Source: Eledone cirrhosa
Taxonomy: Eukaryota
Reading direction: 5' to 3'
DNA length: 64,000 nucleotides
Assembly: GCA_964016885.1 (NCBI GenBank)
Contig: OZ024742.1
Location: forward strand, 340,566,001-340,630,000
Shown here: piece after piece, positions 13,443 through 45,064 of the stretch
How positions within the stretch are numbered: position 1 is the stretch's first letter
Layout of the letters: each line of letters begins with the position of its first letter
Notes under the pieces: model-generated
The model's database searches: none
Told to the model about the DNA's origin: nothing
The model's input: only the letters and a program-made list of their open reading frames with translations
Program-made: the position numbers and the translations under genes

Positions 13443-13558
13443 CTATCTATCTATCTATCTATCTATCTATCTATCTATCTATCTATCTATCTATCTATCT
13501 ATCTATCTATCTATCTATCTATCTATCTATCTGTCTGTCTATCTATCTATCTCTCTAT
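13443..13558. repeat. (CTAT)n microsatellite, apparent Tx1 target
   Basis: About 28 tetramers, immediately upstream of two stacked Tx1 insertions. Confidence 0.95.
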
Positions 13559-13688
13559 TTTTTGTTATATCTTATTTTATTTTTATATTTTGTTATTGCC
13601 TCCTCCTTATTGAGGACGCCTTTTTGTGTAAACTCCCCCCTTTGTACTTGTCTCACTTTTGATGCCCTAGTGGCAAATAAAAGAAACA
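13559..13688 (+). mobile_element. Extremely 5'-truncated Tx1 3'UTR fragment with 15-bp TSD
   Basis: Family 3' motif TGTAAACTCCCCCC...TGCCCTAGTGGCAAATAAAAGAAA; flanked by TATCTATCTCTCTAT at 13544-13558 and 13689-13703. Confidence 0.8.
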
Positions 13689-13921
13689 TATCTATCTCTC
13701 TATCAGACGTGTGTAACTTCGCGGAGAAGTTTCCGTTAATTTATGTAAGAAAAAAACGTGAGTTTTTAGTTAAATTTTATATCATTGTGTAACTTGATCC
13801 CCCGTCTGATAGTTCAGGTGGTGGGTCAACTCATTTTCCCCCCTACAGGGGCGGAATATCCATTTGAAAATTTTTTCTCCATCGAATCTTTCAAAAAATA
13901 TTGTAAAATTTTGATTACGTT

Positions 13922-15835
13922 ATGAACGCTGCGTCCAACGATAATGGTGGTGGAGAGGCGGTAAGACTACAAAGCTCGCAGTCAACAACGTCTTTTTCAC
14001 TAGATACTATAGAGAGGGAAAGACGAAATGAAAATGTAAAAACGAATTCATATTCAAACAACACAAATGACACCAAACAATTCAATGACAACAAAAATAA
14101 CAGCAACACCAATAATGATGATAAAAGCAACAATGATAACAACAACAAAGAAAAAAATAAAGACAACACCAATAACACCAGCATCAAAGACAACAACAAC
14201 ACCAAGGAAAATACGAATAATACCAACATCGGTGACAACAAGAATAACAACAACAATAACAACAATAATGACAACACCAACAACACGGAATCCACAAAGA
14301 AACCAAAAATCTCCTTTGCAGAGAAAGTTCAAAAAAAGGAAGAATTGATATATCTCGACATAACAAATGCTGAACAACTTTTAAAGGACGCTAGGAGATA
14401 TGTCACTTTCGATAAAAATGGTGCTTTCAGCATCAATTCTCCGGTAGAAATTCGCAAGGAAACTGCTCTCAAAACGATAGTTTTTAGGACAGTTTCCAAT
14501 TCTACCCAAAAACCAGGCCAATTGTCACAGAAAGAAATTGAACTGGTTTTCAAAAATTCAATGTATGATGTTGCATTCATTCAAAGAAGCAAACTTTTTG
14601 GGAGTATTTCGGTACTCATGAAGGATCAATTGACGGCCCAAAATTACTCTGTGTCGCCAATTGTATCCAACCTGTACACCTTTTTCCCTACATACATGGG
14701 AAAAAGGACACAAAAGATCAGAATCACGAGTGTCACACCAAAGGTGAACATATGGTGGATACTGTGCTGCTTCATCAATTTTGATGAAGACAGAATACTG
14801 TCAGTAGGCAAGTCCCCCAGAGATGTATTCAATGGGACTAGCATTGAAGTTCTGGTGCAAATGAGCCCAGAGCGAATAGCTATGATCCCACAGCGTGTAC
14901 TCCTGGACGGACTCACGTACATAAACTTTTCGGTTGAGGGTAGGCGGCCTTCATGTTACCATTGCTTTAGCAGGGGCCACCTGAGGGCTTCCTGTCCTAA
15001 ATTAATGAACCAAAAAAAGGCTCTTCTGCCGACACCCATCAAAACAACACAACCACCAACACCACCACAACAACAACACCAACACACAAAAATAAACACA
15101 ACAAACACAGTCCCACCAAACCCCACTCCACCTAAAACCACTGCAAAATCACAGACAGACACAACAGCTCCTGAAGACATACCCCTCCCCAATCACACAG
15201 ACGATACAACAGATGAGGCTATCTCGCCATCACCCAGTGAAGACGAGGGAGAACCCCATCGCTCGAAAAGAAAGAAAAGACATCACAAAAGCAAAAGACC
15301 AGCAAACACTACCACAAACATACAACCACCAACAGAAACAACAAAAACATCACAAACAAAACCCCCACCTCCTGAAAACAAAATACCTACAACAAAACGA
15401 AAGCACACACAAGAACTACAGACAAAAACAAACACAACACAAGAAAATTACACTTACACATACATAAACACTGAAAACAAAACACTAATGGAGACCATCA
15501 CGAATGACCCTTCGGTGAAAACCGAAGGGAAAACTTTCGCCCACTCTATTAAAAATAGCAAAAAACTGAACCTAAAACTGATTAGGGTCCCTATACAAAC
15601 TTATAGGTCCCTAAAAGAAACATTTGAGAAGGATGTGGGGAATTCCTGCGTGAAACCACTCAATCGCGTCCTTCTCAAATGCCTCCCCACCCCAGACACC
15701 CCCATCCCACCAGACCCCACCCCACCAAACATCTGCGTCCCCACCCCGCCGGAAACCACCACCCATCCAGACAACCCCTCCAACATCCCCATGGAAATCG
15801 TGCGGCCTGGTCCCCAGGAGGCGAAGGGTGAGTGA
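13922..15835 (+). CDS. ORF1, 637 aa gag-like nucleic-acid-binding protein (CCHC knuckle), intact
   Basis: Uninterrupted ORF; Asn-rich N-terminus, conserved core, CYHCFSRGHLRASC, Pro/Thr-rich linker, basic patch RSKRKKRHHK, conserved C-terminal block (YTYIN...TEG...VKPLNRVLLK). Confidence 0.9.
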   Translation: MNAASNDNGGGEAVRLQSSQSTTSFSLDTIERERRNENVKTNSYSNNTNDTKQFNDNKNNSNTNNDDKSNNDNNNKEKNKDNTNNTSIKDNNNTKENTNNTNIGDNKNNNNNNNNNDNTNNTESTKKPKISFAEKVQKKEELIYLDITNAEQLLKDARRYVTFDKNGAFSINSPVEIRKETALKTIVFRTVSNSTQKPGQLSQKEIELVFKNSMYDVAFIQRSKLFGSISVLMKDQLTAQNYSVSPIVSNLYTFFPTYMGKRTQKIRITSVTPKVNIWWILCCFINFDEDRILSVGKSPRDVFNGTSIEVLVQMSPERIAMIPQRVLLDGLTYINFSVEGRRPSCYHCFSRGHLRASCPKLMNQKKALLPTPIKTTQPPTPPQQQHQHTKINTTNTVPPNPTPPKTTAKSQTDTTAPEDIPLPNHTDDTTDEAISPSPSEDEGEPHRSKRKKRHHKSKRPANTTTNIQPPTETTKTSQTKPPPPENKIPTTKRKHTQELQTKTNTTQENYTYTYINTENKTLMETITNDPSVKTEGKTFAHSIKNSKKLNLKLIRVPIQTYRSLKETFEKDVGNSCVKPLNRVLLKCLPTPDTPIPPDPTPPNICVPTPPETTTHPDNPSNIPMEIVRPGPQEAKGE

Positions 15836-15866
15836 TCTCTTCCTCTTTTAACTTTTCAGCACCAAC

Positions 15867-42532: not shown

Positions 42533-43132
42533 TGCCCGGGCGTAAGCGACCCGTGGAACTATGTGGAACAACTGCTGTCGCGTATAGGACAAATACATTT
42601 GACTACCGAGTTCATAGTAAGGATCAAAACGCCAGCCTCTTTCAAAATCGAAAGAGAGGCGGTTTTCCTCTGTACAGTGGCTATGGTGAAAGAGGTTATA
42701 TGGTGGACGAGATTGAGAGGACTGAGGACAGATGCCTTTCTCTCCGGACAACAATTGATTCCCTTCTTTAAGTATCACTTTAAAAGGAGAATCAGAGTGG
42801 AGAGAAAGGCACTGCGCCCCAGTAAGTTTACTGAAAGGTGGGTGAATGAAGCGAAAATGGCCCGAGTGATTGGGCCTTCTCTGTTTATAAGCCTGTAGGC
42901 TAAAGAAGAGAGCAAAAGGAAGAAGGGAGAACTTTCACAACACGCTCCTGAAGTTGATGGTTGTTCTATCGACGGTGTATTAAACAACCCATTTGTGGTG
43001 CTTACCCCTATTGGTGATTTCGATTGTTATAATTGTTTGTTTCAATATGTTTACACGACTGTATGTAAAATACCCGGCATGTGTCTTTGTATTGTCCCCT
43101 TTTCTTGTGCGCCCTTGTGGCAAATAAAGAAA
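42533..43132 (+). mobile_element. 5'-truncated Tx1 fragment A between (TCTA)n tracts
   Basis: ORF2 C-terminus (KEVIWWTRLRGL...ARVIGPSLFISL*) plus its own distinct 3'UTR ending AATAAAGAAA-TCTATCTA. Confidence 0.9.
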
Positions 43133-43163
43133 TCTATCTATCTATCTACCTTTCTATCTATCT

Positions 43164-44682
43164 AAACCCAAACAAGTCTATCGGTTTGCATCTCGCCACA
43201 TGGCGAGGCAAACCATGCCTTCCGACAGTGTCGTTGGACGCTGGACGGAAGGACCGGTGAAATTGTTCGGGGTCTGGTTTGGTACAGACCTCCAGGTGGA
43301 CAAGAACTGGAACGAGGTCACGGCGAAGGTGCTTGCACTCACTCAGAAGTGGGTTGAGTGCAAAAACTCTCCTTGAAAGGTCGAGCGGAGGTGGCGAACA
43401 CTTACATAGCGTCCGTCATCCACTACCGCTTGACAGTCATGCCTTGGCCCCGCGAATACCTCACCAAAATGGAACGCCTACTCTTCAAGTTCCTCTGGAA
43501 GAAACAGGCTCTATTGGTGAAGAGATCCATCTGCTATTAACACCTTTGTAACGGAGGGCTGGGCATTTTTTGGATGATGATGCACAAACACGCGCTGAGG
43601 CTACACCATCTCCAGCTGTTCCTGACCGGCGATCCGCTGTGGCTGTCGTTTGTGAGACGAGCTCTTCCACAACTCGTCTCATTTACAGAGCTGCAGTCTT
43701 GGGTCAAGCGAAGACCAAAAATGGGCGCCTGGCACCTCGAGTGCCTTCAGGCGCTCACAGCCCTCTACCAAGCGGAAACGGCAATCAGCGGAGACTCCAC
43801 TTCGACATTCTATAGGGGATTAGTGGAGGATAAGTGCGACGACGTTCTCGGGGAAACTCTAGGCATCGAGGAAGACGAACTGACAAGTCTGTTCGGGAGG
43901 ACTTTCCGTCCAGGGCCTATGGATAACTTCTAGAGGTCTCTGGCCTGGCAGTGCTACCAAGGAGCTCTACCAGTTCGAGACAAAATCCACAGGCACGGAC
44001 GCCCTGGCAGAGATCCTGCCAAAAGGACCTGTCCAAGATGCGAGCAGGACATCGAAACCGTTCTGCACGCAAGTGTTCAATGTCCAGAGGTGACCGACCT
44101 GTGGAATTATGTCGAACAGCTACTGTCACGTGTAGGACGCATCCAGTTGTCAGCCGAGTCCATCGTGAATATCACCCCGCCGCCTTCATTTAAGAATGAA
44201 GGAGAGGCGGTCTTCCTCTGTCTGGTGGCTATGGCGACAGAGGTAATATGGTGGACGAGGTTAAAAGGACTGATGGCAAGCAGACAACAACTCATCCCCT
44301 TCTTTAAGTACCACTTCAGAAGGAAGGTGAGAGTGGAGAGAGAGGTGCTACACCCCAGTAAATTCGCTGAAAGGTGGGTGAATGTGGCGAAAATGGCCCG
44401 GGTGAATGGGCCTTCTCTGTATATAAACCTGTAGGTTGAGGAAGACAAACCGAGGGAATTCGGGAACACCTACAAAACGTGTTCCTGGTGTTGAGGGTTG
44501 TGCTATCCACGGGATATAAAACAACCCCGCAGTAGCGTTACCCCAACCCTTAATGGGAATTTCAATTGTTTTATTTTTATATAGTTTATTGTTATTTATC
44601 ATTGTTAAAGATTTTATGTAAAACCCCCGCCGTCACGTCTTGTAATGTCCCATTTTTGTACGCCCTGTGCCAAATAAAGAAA
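43164..44682 (+). mobile_element. 5'-truncated Tx1 fragment B between (TCTA)n tracts
   Basis: ORF2 from the NPNKSIGL region to ARVNGPSLYINL*; 3'UTR ending AATAAAGAAA-GATATCTATCTATC. Confidence 0.9.
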
Positions 44683-45064
44683 GATATCTATCTATCTCTC
44701 ACTATCTATCGATTTCTCTCGCGAGTCTACATGTTAAAACATATCTGATAAGCTTCCGATTCCAGTGTCAGGTTCGATCGTGATAGATCGCTCCTCGAGC
44801 TGATCGACAGTGAAACATATGTAATATGTAACTAAATATGTATATGATGCAACACTGACTCTTCGTTTCCTTATACATTAATATTATATATATATATATG
44901 CGTGTGTATGTGTGTGTGTGCGTGTGTGTCTGTGTGTCTGTGTGTCTGTGTATGTACGACAGAGAAACAGATTATTTATAGATAGATACGCAGGCAAGTA
45001 TATATATATATATATATATACATGACAGAATCTTAACCATCTACTATGTCAGGGTATGTCATGC

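Follow-up and report, generated by a model that had tools for sequence, protein, structure and literature searches.

L1-group LINE families in (TATC)n microsatellites of Eledone cirrhosa and two kinds of 5' junction in sister families

Some long interspersed nuclear elements (LINEs) of the Tx1 clade, which carry an apurinic/apyrimidinic endonuclease-like (APE) domain, insert into microsatellites: Kibi into (TC)n, Koshi into (TTC)n and the crocodilian Tx1-1_Crp group into (TTCC)n/(TTTC)n (PMC4494074; PMC3812793), by a mechanism that has been called not well understood (PMC3812793). Statements taken from these and the other papers cited below hold for the parts of them that were available. In Drosophila, R1 elements use a fixed first-strand site and are of two integration types: the ancestral type yields a target-site duplication (TSD) of 14 bp with untemplated bases, and the melanogaster type a precise full-length 5' junction, which has been ascribed to transcripts that contain upstream target sequence; annealing of flanking RNA at the 3' end has also been proposed (PMC2718515). 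The analysis presented here concerns 64,000 nucleotides of Eledone cirrhosa (GenBank assembly GCA_964016885.1, contig OZ024742.1, positions 340,566,001 to 340,630,000, forward strand), a stretch referred to below as the window, for which a sequence-only reading had proposed one Tx1-type retrotransposon family specific for (TCTA)n/(GATA)n. The results suggest that (TATC)n is almost certainly a genuine insertion target, that several families use it, and that sister families differ at their 5' junctions.

Like Kibi, Koshi and Tx1-1_Crp, these elements are APE-type and L1/Tx1-like and lie in microsatellites, with related families using different units; unlike them, they target (TATC)n and (ATT)n, which are not pure pyrimidine strands, in a host that is not a vertebrate. 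The target lists for the three groups do not contain TATC/GATA in the available parts of the two papers concerned (PMC4494074; PMC3812793). A literature search returned no report of a LINE targeting TATC/GATA, its coverage excluding Repbase, Dfam and the supplement of PMC4494074, which may hold this target. (TATC)n/(GATA)n is likely to be a new target repeat for a Tx1 habit known from fish and crocodilians. A 2026 annotation of Octopus vulgaris lists 13 recently active L1-Tx1 families with 421 insertions, likewise young, and the word 'target' is absent from the main text of that paper, as available (PMC13282606).

The target of family A

At least four related families of APE-reverse transcriptase (RT) LINEs are present in the window. 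Nucleotide identity among the copies in the second open reading frame (ORF2), which is disrupted in every one of them, is 70–82%, so that the single family proposed earlier gives way to several, with two modes of integration. The families are designated A (copy 3), B (copy 4), C (copy 2), D (fragment B), E (the 13559 fragment) and F (copy 1). Copy 3 carries one frameshift in ORF2, near residue 161–167, and is bounded as follows:

21127..21146, minus strand: 20-bp TSD of copy 3, 3'-side copy
21147..26962, minus strand: copy 3, family A, full-length (5816 bp); CCHC knuckle in ORF1; APE, RT and zinc finger in ORF2
26963..26982, minus strand: 20-bp TSD of copy 3, 5'-side copy, with more TATC ahead

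This duplication (GAAATATAGATAGATAGATA) is exact over its 20 bp, as had been stated; on the element strand its last 7 bases are non-repeat, and there is more TATC on its 5' side. The 3' ends in the window (at 13686, 19554, 21147 on the minus strand, 42512, 43132 and 44682) all pass into TATC without poly(A), and the orientation of the repeat follows that of the element on both strands; on both points the sequence-only reading was right. The terminus that it described needs refinement: the copies end in AATAAA-N0-2-GAAA plus a dinucleotide typical of the family (TA/TC, TT/TC, CA/TA or GA), and then TATCT.

The repeat was tabulated against background in the genome (3.0 Gb), where a first look gave 242 to 2815 candidates per query, which are not copy numbers; copy sets consisted of the 40 best matches per search. 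Thirty-nine other A copies were chosen with a query lying inside the 5' end of the element, blind to both flanks. The first query had carried 7 flank bases; its loci were excluded from this blind count and kept in the TSD tallies. The background comprised 20 regions of 10 kb fixed beforehand (397,600 positions). At least two TATC units were present within 30 bp upstream of the 5' junction in 37 of the 39 copies and units in GATA orientation in none of them (0/39), against 1179 of the 397,600 background positions (0.30%). The 3' end reads GAAA-NN-TATCT in 31 of the 36 copies for which it lies in the fetched DNA. Over the full sets, TATCT stands at the 3' junction in 62/67 A and 55/57 B copies and TCTCT in one copy of each, so the Kibi/Koshi type of target does not apply, and a run of at least six A within 30 nt of the end was found in 0/67 A and 1/57 B copies. 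Kojima recognizes a target preference when more than 20% of flanks share a sequence (PMC4494074); the corresponding counts here are 37/39 for family A and 23–29/30 for families B, C and D.

A TSD that reaches from the repeat into non-repeat DNA was found in 25 of the 64 A copies with both junctions (26/67 when later pooled). These duplications are 15–22 bp long, start at TATCT, always 2 nt behind GAAA, and are accompanied by 0–5 extra bases on the 5' side (1–5 nt in 12 of the 25 anchored cases). Their lengths peak at 15–16 and 19–20, a spacing that could reflect one added TATC unit, though locus L068 has a true 20. At L028, a copy has inserted directly behind the GAAATA of an older element, yet itself carries TC, and the terminal dinucleotide is therefore derived from the element. 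At L043, L046 and L051, a TATAT site is matched by a TATAT junction, which indicates that no fixed tail is added.

These data bear on the possibility that the repeat is an element-encoded tail, or that elements insert at random and persist or expand solely within microsatellites. Of eight TATC arrays of at least three units in 200 kb of background, three lie directly behind the 3' end of a family (small numbers), and elements may thus seed or lengthen some arrays. However, the repeat is joined to unique DNA by TSDs, its register and strand are fixed, TATAT sites are copied at the 3' junction, and the 5' flanks, which according to the sequence-only reading would lack TCTA if the repeat were a tail, did carry it in 37/39 copies. 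Full-length A copies are, moreover, 97–99% identical to copy 3, which leaves little time for selective retention. This explanation is very improbable and already largely refuted.

Several observations count against the targeting reading. The repeat extends across the whole site in 29/64 A copies, and 10/64 have no exact TSD. The other five of the 36 3' ends are TATAT or TCTCT, indicating relaxed specificity, and (TA)n and (TC)n are occasionally used as sites, as is a single TATCT (L011). As the best matches of each search, the copies are the youngest ones and not a random sample. An empty allele was sought at L011:960-1872 in contigs of four public runs; a high-copy repeat in the flank dominated the matches, and no joint skipping the insertion was among those listed. 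Given the flanks, TSDs and copied sites taken together, there is very little doubt that targeting of (TATC)n is real.

A bias of insertions towards the 3' edge of arrays was considered and rejected, since the medians (8 upstream, 9 downstream) come from a set in which short downstream runs were already a condition of choice. Seven A copies and one B copy (L037, L043, L075, L078, L079, L087, L089, L240) lie in the TATC/TA tract that ends one dispersed repeat, and upstream there is often a stretch resembling a palindrome; their TSDs differ, so these insertions are independent. At L045 and L059, the first 11–14 nt of family A are doubled ahead of the element, a pattern like that left by a template jump or a restart.

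The 5' junction of family B

Family B is 82% identical to family A in ORF2 and has the same target site. Its copies comprised 39 chosen blind to their flanks and 20 chosen by their 3' end, 19 of the latter being resolved and 17 full-length. Full-length B starts with TTGATAGAG directly behind TATCTATC in 46/53 copies, whereas the 5' flank of A ends in that octamer in 6/50 (p=4e-15). Long TSDs were compared in copies with at most 13 nt of downstream repeat, where a long TSD must expose unique DNA; they were present in 2/26 B and 14/22 A full-length copies (p=5e-5), and the DNA around both B cases is periodic or tandem.

The contrast between the two junctions is new here and appears to mirror the two integration types of Drosophila R1, with A resembling the ancestral type in its TSD and extra bases and B the melanogaster type in its precise junction (PMC2718515). 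R1 belongs to the R1 clade and inserts in 28S rDNA, whereas the elements described here are of the L1 group, use a dispersed microsatellite and have both types within a single genome, in families that are 82% identical.

By analogy, the B transcript would begin in the upstream repeat, and the end of its cDNA would anneal to upstream TATC, which would give the precise junction behind TATCTATC in place of a long TSD. The same junction could be produced by a second nick near the first, with a TSD of 0–5 bp falling within the repeat and an RNA devoid of target sequence. A short stagger in a 4-bp repeat would look identical, and at L343, L246 and L278 the downstream repeat is just 4–5 nt long, so that any TSD is at most 5 bp. 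No clean rearranged junction, with a TSD followed by extra TATC, was found among the B copies; both candidates fall in periodic or tandem DNA. Against such a nick, unpaired priming adds bases in family A (12 of 25 anchored TSDs), whereas the B junctions are identical and in a single phase in 46/53 copies, and for this reason annealing is favoured for family B and the second-nick explanation seems rather doubtful. Empty B sites, approached through the 5' TSD of an interrupted older element, could be resolved in none of the 11 cases fetched, where pure repeat or additional insertions stood in between.

Other counts fit the division between A and B less well. An exact long TSD is missing in 8/22 testable full-length A copies. 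The truncated B copies (three and one split match) have neither a TSD nor 5' TATC, whereas truncated melanogaster-type R1 elements have TSDs (PMC2718515); these B copies may be later deletions.

Full-length copies of family C mostly begin TCTC-TATC-AG (7/8 seen, at 13690-13706 in the window and at L063, L066, L192 and L288-L290 among the loci), and these starts may represent a third, fixed class of 5' junction. L253 and L269 combine a family B 5' end with the 3' end of another family and are possible recombinants, which could help to tell effects of the endonuclease from those of the tail.

Site selection and the proposed route of insertion

Anchored sites with only 5–7 nt of downstream repeat show what lies upstream of the putative nick: a TATC unit was present there in 7/9 of them, against 13/611 such sites in the background, although a single dispersed repeat accounts for two of the seven. 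Since upstream DNA cannot be chosen by RNA pairing, protein contact is likely. This result bears on whether the endonuclease might instead be loosely specific, for AT-rich DNA with alternating purines and pyrimidines, with a read-through tail on the RNA picking the repeat and each lineage keeping its current repeat. Such a scheme would accommodate the precise 3' junctions, the absence of poly(A) although AATAAA sits 4–6 nt from the end, the occasional use of TA-only and TC sites, the retention of TCATT by the ATT family next to a non-ATT flank (L209, L211, L212) and the flanking target present in R1 transcripts (PMC2718515). It does not predict the upstream enrichment, given that a read-through tail cannot pair there. 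Moreover, (TA)n makes up 2.6% of the sampled DNA and (TATC)n 0.16%, yet (TA)n is rarely hit, and the Tx1L endonuclease is sequence-specific on its own (PMC1950540). Loose cutting guided by the RNA is judged unlikely. Protein contact and RNA pairing are both taken to act, their relative weight lying beyond what genome data can give. At the 3' end of the RNA there is just a 3-bp hairpin, with no covariation, and no structure is proposed.

The data are probably best explained by young L1-group (likely Tx1-clade) elements that enter pre-existing (TATC)n between TATC and TATCT, likely through target-primed reverse transcription from an APE nick in the GATA strand. The 3' junction has a fixed place, 2 nt behind GAAA, beyond which the DNA belongs to the target. 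The nick would fall in the GATA strand between the two units of 5'-GATAGATA-3', and protein contacts upstream would aid the choice of site, because upstream TATC exceeds what the downstream sequence predicts. The RNA would extend a few bases past GAAA-NN into TATC and pair with the nicked strand, and for this reason neither poly(A) nor a tail would be copied. In family A, where TSDs of 15–22 bp are accompanied by 0–5 extra bases, a second nick downstream and unpaired priming may complete the insertion; family B would use the annealing described above. Elements are stacked head to tail, and each insertion would leave adjacent TATC as a fresh target. Another family 3' end lies at most 150 bp upstream of 15/67 A and 20/57 B copies, and the stacking accounts for the chains at 13443-19858 and 36986-44700 in the window.

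Classification, sister lineages and the rest of the window

The genomic A copy at L049 encodes proteins of 647 aa (ORF1p) and 1145 aa (ORF2p), and both frames are open in 9/47 full-length A copies. Its ORF2p matches Exo_endo_phos (PF03372), RVT_1 (PF00078) and, slightly below the cut-off, zf-RVT (PF13966). In a search of the PDB, in which L1 and R2 were the only full-length comparators, the closest solved structure was human L1 ORF2p (E=1.5e-48, residues 8–855), followed by R2 (1e-19), and the catalytic motifs line up with those of the L1 endonuclease (L1-EN). With an N-terminal APE, an RT, a C-terminal zinc-binding domain and two ORFs, these elements have an L1-group APE-RT architecture. ORF1p contains CxxC-x4-H-x4-C, has no Pfam match and gave Atlas feature matches of 0.89–0.92 to zf-CCHC, RRM and ZCCHC3-type clusters, which are a lead only. 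An ORF1p of such a type has been called consistent with Tx1 (PMC5203782), and ORF1 type and target habit together make membership of the Tx1 clade likely.

Sets of 30 loci, each including the window's own copy, were assembled for families B, C, D and F; copies without a 3' end numbered 0 for B, 2 for C and 1 for D. TATCT stands at the 3' junction in 29/30 B, 24/30 C and 23/30 D loci and in 0/30 of the ATT family, F, which has ATT there in 28/30 (B 1/30, C 0/30, D 0/30). Copy 1, of this lineage, begins behind a long ATT array, and such arrays also lie 5' of several truncated F copies. Family F is older (89–96% identity), and its terminal TCATT is retained also next to flanks other than ATT (L209, L211, L212). 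Its endonucleases are 59–63% identical to those of A, B and C, and trees part TATC from ATT families with modest support of 58 (EN) and 80 (RT). At the tip of the hairpin loop, four TATC families have S or T where two ATT families have M or I, and three TATC representatives differ from two ATT ones in 31 EN columns; no specificity residue is assigned, because the trees give one independent contrast only. A tRNA-SINE-like repeat (SINE, short interspersed nuclear element) of about 231 bp with an ATT tail, present in very high copy number (window 5716-6279 and many loci), often adjoins members of the ATT-targeting family.

The R4-type element Dong has a restriction-like endonuclease. It inserts in (TAA)n, also in a snail (PMC3812793), the repeat that family F uses.

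More broadly, it is possible, though held tentatively, that one radiation of microsatellite-homing LINEs has switched both its target (TATC or ATT) and its second-strand mechanism inside one genome; the B RNA would start in GATA repeat and join precisely through repeat sequence at both its ends, the microsatellite would act as target, primer and 5' handle, and a sizeable share of GATA arrays would be occupied.

The other features of the window are the following:

1..5566, plus strand: copy 1, sister lineage F in (ATT)n; starts about 280 bp ahead of the window, behind an ATT array
13443..13558, plus strand: 29-copy (TATC)n array in which the 13559 fragment and copy 2 landed
13544..13558, plus strand: 15-bp TSD (TATCTATCTCTCTAT) of the 13559 fragment, left copy
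13559..13688, plus strand: 3' untranslated region fragment (13559 fragment) of TATC-associated family E, ending in AATAAAAGAAA-CA
13689..13703, plus strand: right copy of that 15-bp TSD, overlapping the head of copy 2
13701..19556, plus strand: copy 2, a full-length member of family C whose ORF2 has two frameshifts and one stop
19454..19858, plus strand: 151-bp tandem repeat (3' end of copy 2 and TATC tract), present as two identical units plus part of a third
36986..42514, plus strand: copy 4, family B
42515..42533, plus strand: TATC tract from copy 4 to fragment A
42534..43134, plus strand: fragment A, 5'-truncated, of a further family
43135..43164, plus strand: imperfect TATC tract from fragment A to fragment B
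43165..44684, plus strand: fragment B, 5'-truncated family D, ending GAAA-GA and then TATC

The 15-bp TSD around the 13559 fragment is the second in the window and was absent from the sequence-only reading. Copy 4 is 97% identical to a genomic copy of intact length and lacks its first 126 nt; its 5' side has no TATC and adjoins an ACC-rich tandem array. Element ends duplicated in tandem together with their tract occur at 19454-19858, L336/L356 and L089; among them are the 151-bp units behind copy 2 and a truncated C copy that stands, with an identical 5' breakpoint, on either side of a B copy. They may stem from unequal exchange or from a very long duplication. Long tandem arrays at 33554-36992, 54096-60687 and 8005-9531 consist of ACC-rich units of about 63 bp, CAACAC-type units and 36-bp units, and the long stop-free frames that they contain are probably not genes.

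With these families, (TATC)n joins the list of microsatellite targets, which extends a known behaviour and adds no new class. GATA microsatellite markers in this genome often adjoin mobile elements. Two matched natural pairs are available, with open ORFs in at least family A: one contrasts TATC with ATT targeting at about 60% endonuclease identity, and the other long-TSD with precise-join integration in families whose endonucleases are 82% and RTs 87% identical. The main value of the finding lies in these testable contrasts between sister families, more than in the new repeat unit.

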